From assembly GCA_963835625.1 (NCBI GenBank), contig CAWIGO010000010.1:127626-191625 (forward strand): a DNA stretch of 64,000 nucleotides, read 5' to 3'. The translations under genes were made by a program, and so were the position numbers. Below the pieces are notes generated by a model. The model was given only the letters and a program-made list of their open reading frames with translations, was not told the origin of the DNA and made no database searches. How positions within the stretch are numbered: the stretch's first letter is position 1; each line of letters starts with the position of its first letter. This DNA is from an uncultured Verrucomicrobiae bacterium. GTDB lineage: Bacteria > Verrucomicrobiota > Verrucomicrobiia > Limisphaerales > UBA11358. Below, piece after piece: positions 5,044 to 63,166 of this stretch.

Positions 5044-5100
5044 GGACGGCTCGCTGAAAATTTTCCGCCGGGAGGGCCGCCATTCTGGCCGCCCAAATTG

Positions 5101-5121
5101 GGGACGGCAAAATGCCGTCCC
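5101..5121. terminator. GC-rich hairpin GGGACGGCAAAATGCCGTCCC between convergent murJ and ispE
   Basis: Perfect 8-bp stem 9 nt beyond the ispE stop. There is no clear U-run on either strand. The murJ stop TAG is embedded in GGTAGGGACGG (5039..5049), the same word family as the GTAGGGAC elements elsewhere. Confidence 0.4.
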
Positions 5122-5129
5122 TCCCGGGT

Positions 5130-17243: not shown

Positions 17244-18374
17244 CTACAACAAAATCTTCCGCGCCGCTTTCACCAATGCTTCCACTTCTGAGGGATTGCC
17301 AATTGTGATGCGCAGATACTTTTTCACTTCGGGAAAATTAAACCAGCGGACCAGAATTTTCCGGTCTCGAAACTTTTCCAGCCAGTCTTTCGCGGAAAAC
17401 AATGGCGGCTGGACGAGAATAAAATTCGCCTGACTCGGAAAAACGCGGAAACCGAGCTTCGTCAATTCGCGGCTCAACCACTCGCGTGTGGCGATGATTT
17501 TCCGAAAATTCGCGCGGTGATACGGCAAATCGTCCAGTGCTGCCACAGCGGCGATCTGGCCGAGGCCGTTGACATTGTAAGTGTCGCGAATTTTGTGCAG
17601 CGCGGCGATGAGGTCGCGATGACCAACAAAATAACCGACACGCTGGAAGCAGAGCGAATAAGCCTTGGAAAACGTCCGCGCCACGAGCACATGCGGATAT
17701 TTCAACGCCAGCTTCATCGCGTTTTCCTCCGCGAAATCCACATAAGCCTCGTCCAGCACTACGACGCCTTTCTGCGCCCGGCAAAGTTTTTCCAAATCCA
17801 CCGTCGAATAACCGCGACCGCTTGGTGCATTTGGCGTCGTCACATAAGTCAGTGCAGCATTAAATCTACACACCCTTCCATGTTTCAATTCCGCCACACT
17901 CGGCAGGCTAAAATCAGGCTTGAGTGACACGGGATTTTTCACTGCGCCATGAATATCCGCCAGCACTGGGTAGAGCGAATAACTTGGTGTGAAGTATTGG
18001 ATGATCTGGTAGGGACGCCCCGCCGGGGCGTCCGCGGACACGCGAGGCCGCGTGTCCCTACCTAAAACCGGCTCCACAAAGCACCGCGTGGCCAGCGCCA
18101 GCAATTCGTCCGAGCCGTTGCCCACGATGATGTTGTCCGCGTGACAACCGTGCAACTTCGCCAACTTTTCGCGCAATGCCTGTGCCGTCGGGTTTGGATA
18201 CTTCCGTAACCGCCCGTCCACCGCTGCTTTGACCGCCGCCAGCACCTTCGGCGACGGCGGATACGGATTTTCGTTCGTGTTGAGCTTGATCAATCCCTTG
18301 ATCTTTGGCTGCTCACCGTAGACATAAGGGTGCAACTTGTGCACGAGCATGCGAATTAGTTGCGAATTCTTCAT
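17244..18374 (-). CDS. hisC: Histidinol-phosphate aminotransferase
   Basis: LNTNENPYPPSP, GNGSDELL and the FSKAYSL (PLP-lysine) motifs. Carries an extra segment encoded by the palindromic element at 18009..18061. Confidence 0.9.
   Translation of the reverse strand: MKNSQLIRMLVHKLHPYVYGEQPKIKGLIKLNTNENPYPPSPKVLAAVKAAVDGRLRKYPNPTAQALREKLAKLHGCHADNIIVGNGSDELLALATRCFVEPVLGRDTRPRVSADAPAGRPYQIIQYFTPSYSLYPVLADIHGAVKNPVSLKPDFSLPSVAELKHGRVCRFNAALTYVTTPNAPSGRGYSTVDLEKLCRAQKGVVVLDEAYVDFAEENAMKLALKYPHVLVARTFSKAYSLCFQRVGYFVGHRDLIAALHKIRDTYNVNGLGQIAAVAALDDLPYHRANFRKIIATREWLSRELTKLGFRVFPSQANFILVQPPLFSAKDWLEKFRDRKILVRWFNFPEVKKYLRITIGNPSEVEALVKAARKILL
18009..18061. repeat. GTAGGGAC double-hairpin element inside the hisC coding sequence
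   Basis: GTAGGGACGCCCCGCCGGGGCGTCC-GC-GGACACGCGAGGCCGCGTGTCCCTAC is two perfect hairpins bounded by GTAGGGAC/GTCCCTAC. It is nearly the reverse complement of 61864..61924. Confidence 0.85.
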
Positions 18375-20227: not shown

Positions 20228-20373
20228 GCGGGCAGGCTAAGACAAAATGAAGGCGGAAGGAAGAATAGAAAAGCTTTCAGTTTTCAGTTTCAAGTTTTCA
20301 GCTCTGAAAACTGAACTCTTGAAACTTGAAACTCTATGTTTCATCCAGACGGGATTTGTGGCAACATTTTGCC

Positions 20374-25151: not shown

Positions 25152-26060
25152 GTGACGGTTCTTGAAGCGATTCAGAAGAGCGCGGATTTTCTGGCCCAAA
25201 AGGGCGTGGAATCACCGCGCCTGCAAATCGAACTCTTGCTCGCGCATTTGCTCAAAATGCCGCGAATGAAGTTGTATCTGAATTTCGAGCGTGCGCTCAC
25301 GCCGACAGAAGTGGATGCGTTGCGTGAGATGGTCAAACGCCGGGGGCAACGCGAACCACTTCAGCACATTGTCGGCTCAACTTCATTCTGCGGACTTGAG
25401 ATCGCTGTGAACCCCCACGCGCTCGCGCCACGACCGGAAACCGAACTGCTGGCCGAACTCGGGTGGCGGTTTCTTCAAGGTAGGGCGGGTTCTCCGCAGC
25501 CCGCCGCGGCGTCCCGCTCTGCGGGAGAGAACGCGCCCTATCAAGATTTGCATGCTTTGGATTTCGGCACGGGCACCGGCTGCATCGCCATCGTGCTAGC
25601 GGTGAAGTGTCCGAATGCAAAAATCGTCGCGACGGACACTTCGGCGGACGCACTCGCGTTGGCCAAACAAAACGCCGTCCGGCACAATGTCACCGAGCAA
25701 ATCCAATTTCAACAAAGCGACGGTTTTGCCGCATTGTCCGGCAACGCGCGCTTCGACCTCATCATCAGTAATCCGCCTTATATTCCGTCCTCCGAAATTA
25801 TCACTCTTCAGCCAGAAGTCCGCGATTTTGACCCGCGCGTTGCGCTCGACGGCGGCACGGACGGCCTGGATTTTTACCGTTTGATTGCGGCGCACGCAGC
25901 GGCGTTTTTGAAATCGGACGGGAAAATCATGCTTGAATTCAGCGATGGCCAGGCTCAAGCAGTTCGGAAAATTTTTGGAAACGAAAAGTGGATTGTCGAA
26001 GTGGTGAAGGAAGATTACAGTCACCGCGAAAGATTTTTAATTGTGTCGTTGAATCGTTGA
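25152..26060 (+). CDS. prmC: Release-factor glutamine N5-methyltransferase
   Basis: PLQHIVGSTSFCGLEI, DFGTGTGCIA (SAM motif) and ISNPPYIPS (NPPY). Contains an extra segment encoded by the element at 25480..25541. Confidence 0.9.
   Translation: MTVLEAIQKSADFLAQKGVESPRLQIELLLAHLLKMPRMKLYLNFERALTPTEVDALREMVKRRGQREPLQHIVGSTSFCGLEIAVNPHALAPRPETELLAELGWRFLQGRAGSPQPAAASRSAGENAPYQDLHALDFGTGTGCIAIVLAVKCPNAKIVATDTSADALALAKQNAVRHNVTEQIQFQQSDGFAALSGNARFDLIISNPPYIPSSEIITLQPEVRDFDPRVALDGGTDGLDFYRLIAAHAAAFLKSDGKIMLEFSDGQAQAVRKIFGNEKWIVEVVKEDYSHRERFLIVSLNR
25480..25541. repeat. GTAGGG…CCCTA palindromic element inside the prmC coding sequence
   Basis: The outer inverted repeat is GGTAGGGCG / CGCCCTATC. The internal hairpins are GGCGGG-TTCTCCGCAG-CCCGCC and GTCCCGC-TCT-GCGGGA. 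It encodes …QGRAGSPQPAAASRSAGENAPYQ… just upstream of the SAM-binding DFGTGTG. Confidence 0.8.
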
Positions 26061-35666: not shown

Positions 35667-37700
35667 CTAAATTATTTGCGCCGCCAACTCTCGCGCCTGC
35701 CGGATCAAATCCAAATCCTCGGCCAGATTGCCGAAACGGAATTCCGGCAGGCCGCTTTGCCGCTGGCCGAGTAATTCGCCCGGCCCGCGCAATTTCAAGT
35801 CCACTTCGGCAATGCGAAACCCGTCCGTCGTCTCTTCCAAAACTTTCAATCGCCGCCCTGCGTCCTCATTCTTCGCGTCGGAAATCAAAATGCAGTGCGA
35901 TTCATGCGCGCCGCGCCCGATGCGCCCGCGTAACTGATGTAATTGCGCCAGCCCGAATCGCTCCGCATTTTCAACCAGCATGATCGTTGCGTTCGGCACA
36001 TCCAAACCCACTTCAACCAGCGTCGTCGCGACGAGCGCCTGAATTTGGTTCGCGCGAAACGCTGTCATTACTTCGTCCTTCTCCCGCCCTTTCAACCGGC
36101 CGTGCAGCAACCCGACACGGAATGGCGCGAGCAGCTTCTTCAAATTTTCGAATTCCTTCTTCACCGCTTTCAACCCGCCCGCGCCCGTATCTTCCACGCG
36201 CGGATAAACGACGTATGCCTGCCGTCCGGCAGCCAGTTTTTGGAGGATGAACTTCCAAACTTCCGGCAATTGTTCGGTCGTGCGCAAAAAAGTTTTTATC
36301 TGGCCGCGTCCACCGGGCATCTGGTTAATCACCGAAATGTCAAGGTCGCCGTAAAGCGTAAGGCCGAGCGTGCGCGGAATCGGTGTCGCCGTCATCACGA
36401 GCAAATGCGGATAGCGGCCTTTGCGCACGATTTGTTCGCGCTGTGCCACGCCAAACTTGTGCTGCTCGTCAATGATGACCAAACCCAATTTCTCCAATAC
36501 AAATCCCGACTCGATGAGGGCGTGAGTTCCAATCACAAGCGTCCTGCTGTTTGCCTCCTGCTCCTTGCCTTTCCCATGCGAACCGGTTTGCAGCCCCACC
36601 TTGACGCCAAGCGGTCCAAACCAGCGCGAAAAATTGTTGAAATGTTGTTCCGCAAGAACTTCCGTCGGTGCCATGAGCGCAACGTTATAGCCGCTTTCCA
36701 AAGCCATGAGCGCCGCACAGGCGGCAACCACCGTCTTGCCTGAACCGACGTCGCCTTGCAGCAGCCGCCGCATCGGATGCGCCCCGCTCATGTCCGCCCG
36801 GATTTCGCGGAGAACTTTCGTCTGGGCGTCGGTGAGCTTGAAGCCGAGCCGTGCCAGAAACGGCTTCATCAAACGATTGTCACCACCGCACGGTAATGCG
36901 CGCGATTTGACCTCGAAATTTTTCCGGCGAAGCTGCATGTCACGCTGCAACGCAACGAATTCATCCAGCGCCAGCCGACGCCGCGCGAGTTCCACGTCGG
37001 CCAGTTCTTCGGGAAAATGAATCGTGCGAATCGCGTTGGCGCGTGTCGGAAAGGGGTGGGGCGCGCAGTCCTCTGCGCGCCGTATGCCTGGCTTGCCGGA
37101 CGGCGCGGTAGGGACACCGCGCCCTACCTGTTTCGGCCACGGCTCGGCGATTTGTGTTTCAAATTTTCCCAACGTCCGCCAGATGAGCCCGCGCAACCAG
37201 CGTTGCGGCAGGCCTTCGGTGAGCGGATACACCGGCGCGATGCGGTTGATGTGGATGAAGCTCTCCTCGCCGCCCTCGATGACTTCGGTTTCGGGATGGT
37301 CCATGATGCGCGGTTTGGTTTCATTGAGCTTGCCGTAAACGAAAATCTCGTCGCCAACCGCAAAATAATTTTGCATGAACGGCAGATTCCACCACCGGCA
37401 ATGCAACCAGGCGCTACCATCATCGAGAATGATTTCAAAAACGGATTTGTTGCCGCCGCGAAAACGTCTGAGGCCGAGCGCGACAATTGTGCCGCGCGCC
37501 GTGGCCGGTTCATCCTTCGCCAATTCGGCGATTTTGCGGAAATGCCTGCGGTCCTCGTAACGCCGCGGCCGATGCAGCAACAAATCCTCAATGGTGTGAA
37601 TGTCGAGGCGTGCGAGTTGCGCCGCGCGTTCCGCGCCGACACCCCAGAGCGAAGTTACCGGTGCCGTAAGTGGGGAAATTTTTGTTTTCGACGGCAACAT
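35667..37700 (-). CDS. recG: ATP-dependent DNA helicase RecG
   Basis: The wedge-domain N-terminus is LWGVGAERAAQLARLDIHTIEDLLLHRPRRYEDRR. Helicase motifs are GDVGSGKT, DEQHKFG and TATPIPRT. ATG 37700 is preferred, with GTG 37721 as an alternative. Carries the element at 37053..37128. Confidence 0.9.
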   Translation of the reverse strand: MLPSKTKISPLTAPVTSLWGVGAERAAQLARLDIHTIEDLLLHRPRRYEDRRHFRKIAELAKDEPATARGTIVALGLRRFRGGNKSVFEIILDDGSAWLHCRWWNLPFMQNYFAVGDEIFVYGKLNETKPRIMDHPETEVIEGGEESFIHINRIAPVYPLTEGLPQRWLRGLIWRTLGKFETQIAEPWPKQVGRGVPTAPSGKPGIRRAEDCAPHPFPTRANAIRTIHFPEELADVELARRRLALDEFVALQRDMQLRRKNFEVKSRALPCGGDNRLMKPFLARLGFKLTDAQTKVLREIRADMSGAHPMRRLLQGDVGSGKTVVAACAALMALESGYNVALMAPTEVLAEQHFNNFSRWFGPLGVKVGLQTGSHGKGKEQEANSRTLVIGTHALIESGFVLEKLGLVIIDEQHKFGVAQREQIVRKGRYPHLLVMTATPIPRTLGLTLYGDLDISVINQMPGGRGQIKTFLRTTEQLPEVWKFILQKLAAGRQAYVVYPRVEDTGAGGLKAVKKEFENLKKLLAPFRVGLLHGRLKGREKDEVMTAFRANQIQALVATTLVEVGLDVPNATIMLVENAERFGLAQLHQLRGRIGRGAHESHCILISDAKNEDAGRRLKVLEETTDGFRIAEVDLKLRGPGELLGQRQSGLPEFRFGNLAEDLDLIRQARELAAQII
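37053..37128. repeat. GC-rich double-hairpin element inside the recG coding sequence
   Basis: The hairpins are GGCGCGCAG-TCCT-CTGCGCGCC (37060..37081) and GGCGCGGT-AGGGAC-ACCGCGCC (37102..37123). The second overlaps GTAGGG…CCCTAC (37108..37127). The element encodes …VGRGVPTAPSGKPGIRRAEDCAPHPF…. Confidence 0.8.
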
Positions 37701-37757
37701 CGGCAGCACGATACAAACCACCTAAAACCGCTTCAACGGGAAAGCGGCAGGGAAAAA

Positions 37758-44815: not shown

Positions 44816-44887
44816 TTCGGAGGGGCGAGCTTCGCGAGTCCCCAATTGATTTAAAAATCAGGGGCTCGTGAAACCCGCCCCTCCGAA
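44816..44887. terminator. Long imperfect hairpin between convergent LysM gene and uppP
   Basis: TTCGGAGGGGCG (44816..44827) pairs with CGCCCCTCCGAA (44876..44887). Inner pairing is GGGGACTCGCG…/…CTCGTG…CCCC-type with a bulge and one G-U. Confidence 0.5.
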
Positions 44888-51455: not shown

Positions 51456-51530
51456 GGCTGGCGACAAAGATTCCGCTCCTCATGTAGCGGGGCAGGGCTT
51501 GGGCTGTGCCGTGGCCAGAATGATTTGAAC
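51456..51530 (+). repeat. Island repeat copy A (core GCGACAAAGATTCC at 51461..51474)
   Basis: GGCTGGCGACAAAGATTCCGCTCCTCATGTAGCGGGGCAGGGC…GATTTGAAC aligns with copies B, C and D in the same orientation. Confidence 0.8.
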
Positions 51531-57030: not shown

Positions 57031-57565
57031 GAAAACCAATCCGCCGTCTTGGCGGTTCCGGTGGCGGTGGCGGCGGGTCGAGGATTTCCATGACGCGCCG
57101 GAGCACTTCTACAATAGCGATTTCATGTCCGTCGAGTCGCGCGGTCAATTTCTTTTCCAAGTCAGCCAATTGGCGCGCGAGTTCCTTTGTCCCGCCAAGC
57201 AATTCGCGCATTTTCACGAATGCACGCACCACAAACACGCTCATGCGCACGGCTTCCGGGCTGTTCAAGACATTGGCCGCCATGATTGCGCCATTCTCGG
57301 TGAAAGCGTACGGTAAGAACCGCCGTCCACCGTGCAAACTTGAGATGCCAAATTGGCATCTCAAGTTTTCAAACTCCTCCCTCGTCAATTGGAACATGAA
57401 GTCAGCAGGAAAGCGTTTGCGATTGCGAGTCACAGCACGATTCAACGCGCCGGTTTCCACACCGTAGATTTTAGCGAGGTCGGCATCGAGAAGAACTTTC
57501 TTTTCCCGAATCGTTTGAATCAGCGAGCCGATTTTGTCCACGCGCGATGGCGTTTGATTGCTCAT
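56975..57565 (-). CDS. ORF6N (KilA-N-related) domain DNA-binding protein
   Basis: IREKKVLLDADLAKIYGVETGALNRAVTRNRKRFPADFMFQLTREEFENLRCQFGISSLHGGRRFLPYAFTENGAIMAANVLNSPEAVRMSVFVVRAFVKMRE is the ORF6N signature. A coiled-coil and a PPPPPPEPPRRRIGF tail follow. Confidence 0.85.
   Translation of the reverse strand: MSNQTPSRVDKIGSLIQTIREKKVLLDADLAKIYGVETGALNRAVTRNRKRFPADFMFQLTREEFENLRCQFGISSLHGGRRFLPYAFTENGAIMAANVLNSPEAVRMSVFVVRAFVKMRELLGGTKELARQLADLEKKLTARLDGHEIAIVEVLRRVMEILDPPPPPPEPPRRRIGFHVGSEEKSESKAKIQRKH
57336..57368. repeat. Perfect 33-bp palindrome inside the ORF6N coding sequence
   Basis: AAACTTGAGATGCCAA-A-TTGGCATCTCAAGTTT encodes …ENLRCQFGISSL…. It is a sibling of the 31-bp palindrome at 57686..57716. 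Confidence 0.9.
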
Positions 57566-57588: not shown

Positions 57589-57746
57589 ACAATTTGTGCC
57601 GCTTATGTTTTGACATCGCAAATTGCGATATCAAATTAGACTTCCTTCAAGGTCACAAATTGTGACCTTAAAGATTTTGCCATCCAACTTGAGGTGCCAA
57701 ATTGGCACCTCAAGTTTATCTATCTGAACCTATCGCAATTTGCGAT
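57589..57746. promoter_or_regulatory. Array of palindromes with shared CAAATTG core upstream of the ORF6N operon
   Basis: The sites are ACAATTTGT (57589..57597), ATCGCAA-A-TTGCGAT (57615..57629) and AAGGTCACAA-A-TTGTGACCTT (57649..57669). They continue with AACTTGAGGTGCCAA-A-TTGGCACCTCAAGTT (57686..57716) and ATCGCAA-T-TTGCGAT (57732..57746). All lie 24-181 nt upstream of the ORF6N ATG (57565). Confidence 0.6.
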
Positions 57747-60918: not shown

Positions 60919-61812
60919 TCATCTTTTCCGCGCAGCGACGTTCAGCGGCTCGATGTGCACGAGCACGTCGCAAACGGCGGGGAGGGCGTTGCGAATTTTG
61001 TCCTTCACGGCATGGGCGATTTCGTGCGAGCGAAGCACGGTCATCTGCGGATCCACTTCCACATGCATGTCCACGAAATACTGATAACCCACCTTGCGAA
61101 CAATGCATTTCTCCACGCCATTCACACCGGGCGTGGTTGTCGCAATCTGTCGGATCTGGTCAATCACTTCCGGACCGGGCGCGGTGTCCATGAGTTCGCT
61201 TAGGGCCGGACGGAGCAGATGCCAGCCGTTCCACGCGATGACCCCCGCCGCCGCAATCGCCGCCACGTCATCCGCCGCCTCGAAACCCTTGCCGCCGATG
61301 AGCGCCACGCTGATGCCGATGCCGGCGGCCACGGACGTGATGGCGTCGCTGCGATGATGCCAGGCGTCCGTGCGCACGGCGGAACTGTCCACCGCTTTGC
61401 CTTCGTGCGAAACAAACCGGAACAGGCCTTCCTTCACGGCCACCACCAATAGCAGCACGATGAGTGTGAATGGCGCCGGCGACGGGTGGGGTTTCGTGAT
61501 TTCGCCGAACGCCGTGATGGCGATCCACAGGGCCGCCCCCAACAACATGGTGGCGACGATGGCGGAGGCGATGGGTTCGGCCTTGCCGTGGCCGTAGGGA
61601 TGGTCTTCGTCCGCCGGCACCGCTGCAACGACGACGCCACGCCAGACGACGAGCGAACTGAAAATGTCGGCGAAGGATTCGACGGCATCGGCGACGAGCG
61701 CATGCGAATGGCCGGCAATGCCCGCGGCGAGTTTCGTGCCTGACAACACGAGGTTGGCGGCCATGCCCGCAAAGGTGGCGCGCAGACTGCGTTGGAGGCG
61801 ATTCAGTGGCAC
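60919..61812 (-). CDS. Cation diffusion facilitator (CDF) transporter
   Basis: Six TM segments with HSHALVADAVESFAD and the DAWHHRSDA metal-site motifs. A C-terminal cytoplasmic domain follows. Confidence 0.9.
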   Translation of the reverse strand: MPLNRLQRSLRATFAGMAANLVLSGTKLAAGIAGHSHALVADAVESFADIFSSLVVWRGVVVAAVPADEDHPYGHGKAEPIASAIVATMLLGAALWIAITAFGEITKPHPSPAPFTLIVLLLVVAVKEGLFRFVSHEGKAVDSSAVRTDAWHHRSDAITSVAAGIGISVALIGGKGFEAADDVAAIAAAGVIAWNGWHLLRPALSELMDTAPGPEVIDQIRQIATTTPGVNGVEKCIVRKVGYQYFVDMHVEVDPQMTVLRSHEIAHAVKDKIRNALPAVCDVLVHIEPLNVAARKR

Positions 61813-61863
61813 GGCTCAATGTTGAATTTTGAATACCGGGTGTCGAATGCAAAATTCACGGAG

Positions 61864-61924
61864 GTAGGGACGCGCGGCCCGCGTGTCCGAAGATTTGCCG
61901 GACGCCCCGGCGGGGCGTCCCTAC
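61864..61924. repeat. GTAGGGAC double-hairpin element abutting the DUF1015 stop codon
   Basis: GTAGGGACGCGCGGCCCGCGTGTCC-GAAGATTTGCC-GGACGCCCCGGCGGGGCGTCCCTAC approximates the reverse complement of the hisC-internal copy, with a longer central spacer. It starts 2 nt after the stop at 61926..61928. Confidence 0.85.
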
Positions 61925-61925
61925 C

Positions 61926-63137
61926 CTAAATCATATGGCAAAACATTCCGTCGCGGAGCTTTGGTTCGAACCACGTGCTCTTGGGCGGCATCATGCCGCC
62001 GGAATCGGCGACCGCCATTAAATCCTCGATACCCGTCGGGAACATGGAAAACGCGCAAGCATATTCGCCACTGTCCACCAGCTTTTCCAGTTCCGCCGTG
62101 CCGCGAATGCCGCCAATGCAGTTGATGCGCCCGTTCGTGCGAGGGTCGTCAATGCCGAACACAGGCGCGAGTACGTGCTTTTGTAAAAGGGTCACGTCGA
62201 GTAAGTCAACCGGGTCGCCCGCGGCAGTCAGCTTGTTGCGGAAGGCCAGGGTGTGCCATTTGCCGCGCAGATAAAGCCCGATTTCGTGCTTTTGTTTCGG
62301 CATCGCGCTTCCGGTTTCGATCGTGAAAACCGTTTCCAATTTTTTCAGCAATTGCTCCGGCGTCCGGCCTTTCAAATCCTTCAATACGCGGTTGTAGGAC
62401 AAAATCTGCACTTGATTGTGCGGAAAAATCACGGTCAGAAATTGTCCGCTGTGCCCCGCGCCATGGCGCTTTTGAAAAACGCGCGCCGCCGCCGCACTGC
62501 GATGATGCCCGTCCCCGATGTAAAGGCGTGAAATTTTTGCGAATTGCGCTTCGATAAGCCGAATTTCCGCCGCGTCATTAATCGTCCATGAGGTGTGCCG
62601 CACACCATCTCTGGCTGTGAAATCCACATCGGGGTTCCCCGCAATTTTCATCGCAACCAATTCGTCAAGCGCGGAACTGGCGCGATAAGTCAGAAACGCC
62701 GGACCGGTTTGGGAATTGAGCGTTTCAATGTGGCGCGACCGGTCGTCTTCCTTGTCGGGCTGGGTCAATTCATGCTTCTTGATGACGCCGTTGAGATACT
62801 CCTCGCAACTCGCCGTCGCGACAAGGCCGGTTTGCGAATGACCGCCCATGATTTGCCGGTACAGATAAAAACACGGCTGCGGGTCCTGCCGCAGAGCGCC
62901 GTCACGGATGAGTTTCTGAAAATTCTCCCTGCCTTTCGCATAAACTTCCGGCGCGTAAATGTCCGTGCCCGGCGGCAAATCAATTTCCGATTTGCTGACA
63001 TGCAGAAAGCTCAACGGATTGCCGGCGGCAATTACACGCGCCTCGTCCGACGACATGACGTCGTAAGGCAGTTCGCAAATGCGCGAAGCCAGTCCTAGTT
63101 TGGGTCGCAGAGCGGCAAATGGTTTGATCGTGGCCAT
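61926..63137 (-). CDS. DUF1015-domain protein
   Basis: The ATG at 63137 gives MATIKPFAALRPKLGLASRICELPYDVMSSDEAR, the typical DUF1015 N-terminus. The longer tracked ORF extension is Arg/His-rich junk. Confidence 0.85.
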   Translation of the reverse strand: MATIKPFAALRPKLGLASRICELPYDVMSSDEARVIAAGNPLSFLHVSKSEIDLPPGTDIYAPEVYAKGRENFQKLIRDGALRQDPQPCFYLYRQIMGGHSQTGLVATASCEEYLNGVIKKHELTQPDKEDDRSRHIETLNSQTGPAFLTYRASSALDELVAMKIAGNPDVDFTARDGVRHTSWTINDAAEIRLIEAQFAKISRLYIGDGHHRSAAAARVFQKRHGAGHSGQFLTVIFPHNQVQILSYNRVLKDLKGRTPEQLLKKLETVFTIETGSAMPKQKHEIGLYLRGKWHTLAFRNKLTAAGDPVDLLDVTLLQKHVLAPVFGIDDPRTNGRINCIGGIRGTAELEKLVDSGEYACAFSMFPTGIEDLMAVADSGGMMPPKSTWFEPKLRDGMFCHMI

Positions 63138-63166
63138 AAACCGGCAGAGTTTAGTATGCCGGTGAT

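Follow-up and report, generated by a model that had tools for sequence, protein, structure and literature searches.

What is a GC-rich double palindrome doing in frame inside a housekeeping gene? The question is raised by hisC in a stretch of 64,000 nucleotides (64 kb) from an uncultured Verrucomicrobiae bacterium of the order Limisphaerales (contig CAWIGO010000010.1), which we call the window and whose positions serve as coordinates throughout. An earlier note on this DNA had singled out a 53-nt sequence at 18009-18061, and its letters, GTAGGGACGCCCCGCCGGGGCGTCC-GC-GGACACGCGAGGCCGCGTGTCCCTAC, proved to be exactly as given there; one extra base pair on each side brings the element to 18008-18062 (55 bases). 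Our analysis indicates that it is very probably a doublet of inverted, GTAG-headed repetitive extragenic palindromic (REP) units, that is, a non-autonomous repeat similar to REPINs (REP doublets forming hairpins) and BIMEs (bacterial interspersed mosaic elements), belonging to a GGTAGGGAC...GTCCCTACC family of the Verrucomicrobiota.

The ends of the element, GGTAGGG and CCCTACC, form a closing stem around two hairpins joined by the dinucleotide GC, and the two units (Table 1) read GTAG-GGACGCCCCGCCGGGGCGTCC on the + strand and GTAG-GGACACGCGGCCTCGCGTGTCC on the - strand. REPs of the GTAG type are recognized by a terminal GTAG or GTRG and a GC-rich imperfect palindrome of approximately 20-40 nt, both of which are present here, as is the organization that defines a REPIN, in which two inverted units are separated by a short spacer (2 nt in hisC and 11 nt in a second copy described below) and fold into a hairpin. 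The predicted folding energies are -42.2 kcal/mol on the + strand and -42.5 kcal/mol on the - strand (z = -5.3 and -5.8, respectively), and none of 200 shuffled sequences folded as well. The GC content of the element is 79%, compared with 56% for the window and 53% for the remainder of hisC. At the gathering thresholds of Rfam, the window yields no family match anywhere along its length.

The product of hisC scores 299 bits against the TIGR01141 profile (cut-off 276.6), in a match that is broken into two stretches at the insert, and is also above the cut-off of Pfam Aminotran_1_2. Its translation across the element is ...FVEPVLGRDTRPRVSADAPAGRPYQIIQYF..., with the segments ...FVEPVLGR, DTRPR and VSADAPAGRPYQIIQYFTPSYSLYPVLADIHGAVK, and the peptide encoded by the element on the - strand is GRDTRPRVSADAPAGRPY. 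The length of the insert is divisible by three and its reading frame does not pass through the TAG contained in GTAG, so that it is translated as about 19 residues rich in Arg, Pro, Gly and Ala. The earlier note proposed that these residues are an addition placed right after FVEP, and the comparison with known structures bears this out: the best phmmer matches among PDB chains, 3hdo (Geobacter HisC, E 4e-67) and 3cq5 (Corynebacterium HisC), both align with a gap of about 19 residues precisely between FVEP and QIIQYF. Homologues with 40-48% identity have just 2-3 residues at this position, so the distant orthologues do not carry the segment of equivalent length that would have spoken against an insertion.

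The close relatives of this HisC (78-90% identity) all have a variable segment of broadly similar length at the same place, and on this basis it could be argued that we are looking at an ordinary lineage-specific loop that is palindromic by chance, or even at an assembly artefact. We give this explanation a negligible probability: a nearly identical sequence of 55-63 nt is found 44 kb away and in other genomes, the relatives hold unrelated palindromes at the site, and the same hisC insert recurs in five independent assemblies (L035, L066, L067, L068 and L071).

To locate the insert in the protein, we used an AlphaFold model of the window HisC based on 109 diverse aligned sequences, with a mean predicted local distance difference test (pLDDT) score of 95.6; an earlier run from close relatives alone (alignment A1) reached a mean pLDDT of 46 and was discarded. 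The model superposes on 3hdo with a target-normalized template modelling (TM) score of 0.94 and a root-mean-square deviation of 1.6 A, and the insert (residues ~101-123) appears in it, in line with the surface loop that had been suggested, as a coil that links helix 88-99 to strand 124-129 and has pLDDT values of only 70-78. The alpha/beta topology suggests that a helix-to-strand loop such as this would lie along the sheet's edge, on the side remote from the pyridoxal phosphate (PLP) site. A copy of the repeat would have landed in, or replaced an older repeat in, the DNA for a surface loop of the PLP-binding domain, and the extra residues, presumably neutral, would loop out and leave the enzyme functional. 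As a separate observation on these proteins, some HisC relatives (P0007, P0010, P0032) have N-terminal extensions, for example QSAIRNPQS, which at the peptide level look like translated short tandem repeats.

The repeat nature of the element is visible in a second copy within the window. The 25 nt of the first hairpin occur a second time, exactly and on the opposite strand, at 61900-61924, an occurrence absent from 100 shuffled sequences. This hairpin is part of an inverted twin that differs from the hisC copy by one mismatch over the aligned positions, a linker longer by 9 nt and a 1-nt loop indel, and that can alternatively fold as a single long imperfect hairpin. It had been described as an inverted near-copy 2 nt after the stop codon of a DUF1015 gene; the near-copy and its location stand, and the distance between its CTAC end and the stop codon is corrected to one base. 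The twin is also approximately 50 nt upstream of a cation-efflux gene, and the twin and both genes are on the - strand. It occupies the usual position of a REP, directly after a stop codon and between co-directional genes, where it may act on the upstream mRNA, for instance as a 3' stabilizer. None of the intrinsic-terminator-like sites (hairpin plus T-run) coincides with the twin, no terminator-like T-run follows it, and the role of a classical terminator is not supported. The BIMEs of E. coli are inverted pairs of different REP variants with a short linker, located at the 3' ends of genes, an arrangement comparable to that of the twin. They are described as strictly extragenic, unlike the hisC element, and the linkers found here seem to lack recognized integration host factor (IHF) or other motifs.

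A covariance model of the GGTAGGGAC family (R1) finds in the window these two strong copies and weaker relatives at 5070-5125, 25479-25542 and 37055-37128. Together with a doublet of another type at 44816-44887, the window contains six doublets, three of them intergenic and directly 3' of genes and the other three in frame within hisC, prmC and recG (Table 1). The prmC insert is orthologous in two of the related loci, L066 and L067, where the same family lies at the same place. At the recG site of L025 there is instead a GGTAGGGACGCCCC-type doublet of a different family, which encodes GRDVRPARPSEKKDAPAGRPY.

To follow the family beyond the window, we scanned one genome per species in GTDB (596 Gb) with the pattern GTAGGGACGCCCCNNNGGGGCGTCC, which has 22 specified bases, and obtained 65 loci, compared with about 0.07 that we estimate for random sequence. 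Nearly all the matches in Verrucomicrobiota are doublets of the form GGTAGGGAC-hairpin1-linker-hairpin2-GTCCCTACC, in which the partner hairpin varies. Among 14 aligned copies, pairing has survived changes in both members at 7 of the 22 pairs of the partner hairpin; the second hairpin does not vary among them, since the copies were chosen on its sequence. With a detector that requires GTAG...CTAC and 12-nt complementary ends with at most 2 mismatches, we counted 111 doublets of all families in 1.33 Mb of fetched DNA, compared with 9 in shuffled sequence; long open reading frames (ORFs) span 59 of the 111, in a sample enriched for hisC. R1 matches outside hisC amount to 11 sites in 785 kb of related loci. 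The copies in the window and in many Verrucomicrobiota genomes support the suspicion of a dispersed palindromic repeat.

It had also been proposed that the repeat is tolerated in frame within housekeeping genes, and the prmC and recG inserts of the window extend this beyond hisC. Among the relatives, in-frame doublets are found in genes for a NagZ-like glycoside hydrolase of family 3 (GH3), TilS, RecG, a RimO/MiaB-like protein (two inserts), Hsp70, a Ser/Thr kinase (two inserts), uracil-DNA glycosylase, PrmC and thymidine phosphorylase, where the names given to the relatives' genes come from sequence motifs and profile checks cover the window genes only. The codons covering the GTAG head are GTA-GGG (V-G) or GGT-AGG-GAC (G-R-D), and the TAG frame is never used. 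As an observation apart, the hairpin GTAGGGACGCCCCnnnGGGGCGTCC(CTAC) is also present in metagenome-assembled genomes (MAGs) labelled as Anaerolineae, Peribacteria (candidate phyla radiation, CPR), Fibrobacteres, Acidobacteria and Clostridiales, often as a single perfect palindrome or with other partners.

If the element is a REP doublet, a REP-associated tyrosine transposase (RAYT) would be expected to mobilize it, namely an HUH/Y1 transposase acting on single-stranded, GTAG-headed hairpins. Two related Verrucomicrobiae MAGs, L005 and L034, contain such genes. The ORF at 2733-3260 of L005 reaches 83.9 bits against NF047646, the NCBIfam profile for REP-associated tyrosine transposases (cut-off 80), matches E. 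coli TnpArep (PDB 4er8) with an E-value of 4e-6, and is directly bordered at either end by GGTAGGGACGCCCC-type repeats. The RAYT-like gene of L034, just under the same cut-off (Table 1), has GGTAGGGAC doublets on both flanks. Within its own coding sequence, the L034 gene further contains two REP units, in frame and head to head (...GHLGEMSLPNQVGTAGPAV...).

These neighbours also bear on another possible origin, by which the element would be a classical MITE (a transposable element of the miniature inverted-repeat kind), a deletion derivative of an insertion sequence (IS) with a DDE transposase that is mobilized through its terminal inverted repeats. The terminal repeats GGTAGGG/CCCTACC, the small size and the dispersed copies agree with this, and bacterial MITEs such as Correia/NEMIS, ERIC, Nezha and RUP are likewise small and non-autonomous, have inverted ends, and in some cases are in frame within genes. 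However, these are 70-300 bp long, DDE IS-derived and associated with target-site duplications, whereas the flanks of the two window copies, ...gatct/GGTAGGG...CCCTACC/taaaa and ...acgga/GGTAGGG...CCCTACC/ctaaa, contain no direct repeat, and neither copy has a target-site duplication. In addition, the ends bear the GTAG that characterizes REPs, either half forms a hairpin of its own, and the genes flanked by these repeats are Y1/HUH RAYTs and not DDE transposases, which leaves a MITE very improbable.

Several points weigh against the assignment to a RAYT-mobilized REP doublet. Half of the window doublets lie within genes, an unusual situation for palindromes termed "extragenic", and the exact hairpin variant has a low copy number of 1-3 loci per genome. 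Searches with regular expressions and tblastn did not find a RAYT gene in the 64-kb window, so the link between RAYT and REP is here inferred from the related MAGs; this absence is unsurprising because the gene is usually single-copy. The repeats flanking the L005 gene are in direct orientation and not inverted as in classical REPtrons. The signs of mobility in these data are all indirect, namely nearly identical copies at unrelated sites and different families within nearly identical flanks. We also know of no in vitro reconstitution in which a RAYT transposes a REP.

The comparison of hisC among relatives reveals a broader variation at this loop than a single family. We considered 81 related hisC loci, 80 fetched from metagenomes and L035, defining the insert as the DNA between GAGCCN (E-P) and CAATACTTC (Q-Y-F); one locus, L077, was unreadable. 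An in-frame insert of 13-32 codons is present in 80 of the 81, and the frame is open across it in all 80 readable loci, whatever the family. At least 13 unrelated repeat families are represented among the inserts, which are mostly two-hairpin doublets with folding energies between -24 and -53 kcal/mol. In seven families the first bases are GTAG and the last CTAC; examples of the variety are GGTAGGGAC..., GTAGGACAGGCTTCCAGCCTGTC...GACAGGCAAGATGCCTGTCCTAC, GTAGCGGCGTTCGGCAGAACGCCGC..., GTAGCCGCCGATGTGAATCGGCGG... and GTAGCACAGGCG..., and other families have the ends CGGAGGG...CCCTCCG or AACGTGCTGCCGGC...GCCGGCAGCACGTT. Seven classified loci and at least L100 contain instead a non-palindromic tandem heptamer (AAAGTCC, AAAGTTC or CACAGTC in 3-4 copies, in frame) that folds with only -0.2 to -10 kcal/mol, and L133 has a short remnant. 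Nine of the hisC insert families have copies elsewhere in the small DNA sample and are therefore dispersed repeats themselves.

This nearly complete occupancy could mean that the hairpin is kept for its own sake, as a selected cis-acting structure of hisC in DNA or mRNA (for example to pause translation, to serve as an RNase site, or to bind a protein or gyrase), with the repeat families just supplying hairpins to a loop that is kept filled because a strong hairpin is useful. Besides the 80 occupied loci with mostly strong hairpins and the compensatory changes that maintain the stems, the conservation of the inserts agrees with such selection: in seven of the ten families tested, insert identity is 88-93%, compared with 68-79% at the third codon positions of the flanks, and in the remaining three families, with three pairs or fewer each, the inserts are 77-80% identical. 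The encoded peptides are unlike between families, and the constraint on the inserts, or their youth, is consequently at the DNA or RNA level. Against selection on the structure, the conservation of the arms is equally expected from young copies or from homogenization against a genomic master copy, the heptamer alleles barely fold, the L133 loop retains only its remnant, the outgroup HisC is insert-free, and copies of the same elements are also found between genes and within many unrelated ones. We consider it unlikely that a selected structure accounts for the hisC element.

Under the REP-doublet explanation, what remains to be described is how the families relate to the history of the gene. 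The closest relatives of the window HisC have the same family at the same junction. Beyond them, insert family and gene history are almost uncoupled: mean flank identity is 0.81 for pairs of the same family and 0.80 for pairs of different families. L108 and L137, which share 95.7% of their bases across 585 nt of flank, with 73/75 and 71/75 identical bases adjoining the insert, have unrelated inserts of 57 and 78 nt, and the window and L069 differ in family with flanks that are 90.9% identical. In a test for recombination tracts that bring their flanks with them, pairs of the same family proved just marginally more similar than pairs of different families: within 30 nt of the insert, the identities are 0.81 and 0.79 upstream, and 0.857 and 0.845 downstream, a comparison that neither supports nor excludes very short conversion tracts. 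Vertical descent of the families was also tried on a neighbor-joining tree of HisC and rejected, the families being scattered over a tree whose internal branches are short and whose details are not to be trusted.

Other genes offer comparable sites. In thymidine phosphorylase, which is not encoded in the 64-kb window, four families follow the motif WLEV[KR]ESVA.LE in four translated loci, and doublets are present in two further loci. A nagZ-like gene contains a doublet in L001, L006, L056 and L061 and, at the same place, a single hairpin in L015; the flanks in L051 also fit this site, with no spanning ORF called there. The recG and thymidine phosphorylase sites behave similarly to the hisC loop, and the nagZ-like gene does so more weakly.

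A tentative proposal, on balance somewhat doubtful, is that the hisC loop and the equivalent loops of RecG, thymidine phosphorylase and possibly the NagZ-like protein are site-specific landing pads for repeated and precise swaps of resident REP doublets for members of other families. Such swaps might proceed through RAYT cleavage and joining at the resident GTAG hairpins or through conversion of very short tracts, and they would outpace the divergence of the host gene while the arms stay near the master sequence of each family. If copies inserted at random and then survived in permissive loops, the repeated hits at a single site without compound inserts would be left unexplained, and precise exchange at GTAG/CTAC does not explain the family-specific junction codons. 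Homologous recombination over very short tracts that end in the highly conserved flanking codons is possible. We know of no description of cassette-like REPIN replacement within essential genes, our literature search returned nothing relevant on intragenic REP hotspots or family turnover, and in the REP literature we found no description of one codon-level site shared by many families.

These results can be placed beside previously reported systems. REPs have been sorted into GTAG- and CGTC-tagged superfamilies, with GTAG REPs in the Planctomycetes-Verrucomicrobia-Chlamydiae (PVC) superphylum and RAYT genes flanked by GTAG repeats in so-called REPtrons (Di Nocera, De Gregorio and Rocco 2013, PMC3733652). 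The repeats studied here share with the GTAG REP/REPIN-RAYT systems (Nunvar 2010; Bertels & Rainey 2011, PMC3116915; PMC3733652) the GTAG head followed by a GC-rich palindrome of 20-25 nt, the inverted units that form a larger hairpin, the dispersed copies with intergenic ones directly past stop codons, and, in the related MAGs, RAYT genes flanked by the same repeats. Especially close are the intragenic GTAG-17 to GTAG-20 elements of Opitutus terrae, a species with high intragenic REP counts, where in-frame GTAG REP dimers encode 20-30 aa, as in VGPALAAGREQRARLPAAGERPPY of Oter_0490 (PMC3733652). The elements analyzed here differ from those in their host order, Limisphaerales, in their consensus, GGTAGGGAC..., and in their host genes, hisC, prmC, recG and that of thymidine phosphorylase, none of which is among the intragenic REPs listed in PMC3733652. 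The earlier note was not aware of any characterization of such an element in its lineage, which holds for Limisphaerales and for hisC and does not extend to in-frame GTAG REP dimers as such, given those of O. terrae (PMC3733652).

The same note had likened the element to the Rickettsia palindromic elements (RPE; Ogata et al. 2000), which are also palindromic repeats in frame within housekeeping genes and tolerated as an extra peptide. The analogy is sound for this mode of action and does not hold for the identity of the element, which is a GTAG-type REP doublet: there is no sequence relationship, and the short RPE-4 and RPE-6 are CGTC-tagged REPs (PMC3733652). The hosts differ as well, those of RPE being reduced intracellular alphaproteobacteria and that of the element, by the source names of its HisC homologues, a member of the Verrucomicrobiota. 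RPE segments are reported to lie on protein surfaces, RPE-1 is approximately 100-150 bp long, and we are not aware of any association of RPE with a RAYT.

Taken singly, the element is ordinary, and it extends the in-frame palindromic repeats of Opitutus terrae and Rickettsia to Limisphaerales and to hisC, prmC and recG. For annotation, it indicates that Verrucomicrobiota proteins with Arg/Pro/Gly-rich inserts of the GRD...RPY sort contain repeat DNA there and not functional motifs. Of possibly greater importance is the comparative result, as one codon-level site in an essential gene is occupied by at least 13 families across an order, with replacement between loci whose flanks are 96% identical, and the hisC loop thus offers a natural and densely sampled system for the choice of targets by REPINs and for their loss and replacement.

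Table 1. Position and main attributes of the repeats and genes discussed, in the window and in related loci.
Feature	Position	Strand	Attributes
hisC (histidinol-phosphate aminotransferase)	17244..18374	-	376 aa; TIGR01141 and Pfam Aminotran_1_2 matches
REP doublet (REPIN-like) in frame in hisC	18008..18062	.	R1, 79.7 bits, E 4e-17
Unit A of hisC doublet	18009-18033	+	GTAG head on this strand
Linker of hisC doublet	18034-18035		GC
Unit B of hisC doublet	18036-18061	-	GTAG head on this strand
Inverted twin of hisC element	61863..61925	.	covariance model, 73.5 bits
DUF1015 gene	61926..63140	-	TAG stop at 61926-61928 adjoins twin
Cation diffusion facilitator (cation-efflux) gene	60919..61812	-	downstream of twin
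GTAG doublet in frame in prmC	25479..25542		GGTAGGGCGGGTTCTCCGCAGCCCGCC...GAGAACGCGCCCTATC; encodes GRAGSPQPAAASRSAGENAPY; R1 match
prmC (release-factor methyltransferase)	25152-26060	+	TIGR03534 above cut-off
Doublet in frame in recG	37055..37128		degenerate GGTG head at one end, CCCTACC at the other; insert reads VGRGVPTAPSGKPGIRRAEDCAPHP
recG	35667-37721	-	NF008168 above cut-off
Intergenic two-hairpin doublet	5068..5127		related type GGGAGGG...CCCTCCC; between convergent ORFs; R1, 26 bits
Intergenic doublet	44816..44887		CGGAGGGG...CCCCTCCG; between convergent ORFs; type of relatives' hisC insert family 'l'
RAYT-like gene	L034, 3467-4201	-	NF047646, 79.4 bits, just under cut-off of 80
Tandem heptamer in hisC loop	L084, L089, L095, L100, L107, L109, L123, L135; perhaps L130, L136		
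Thymidine phosphorylase with doublets	L124, L126, L129, L130, L132, L138		gene 4-5 kb upstream of hisC
Hairpin GTAGGGACGCCCCnnnGGGGCGTCC(CTAC) in MAGs of other labels	L003, L004, L008, L009, L020, L022, L028, L030, L031, L036, L040, L041, L047, L049, L053, L060, L062, L065, others		

Three further repeats of the window are of other kinds. TTTTCAG heptamer-like repeats form inverted arrays at 20271-20333, just upstream of hisD. A 50-nt direct repeat starting with GCGACAAAGATTCCGCTCCT has four copies, at 51461, 55231, 55403 and 56278, and the AT-rich palindrome AACTTGAGATGCCAAATTGGCATCTCAAGTT is present in two to three copies at 57333-57371 and 57686-57716.

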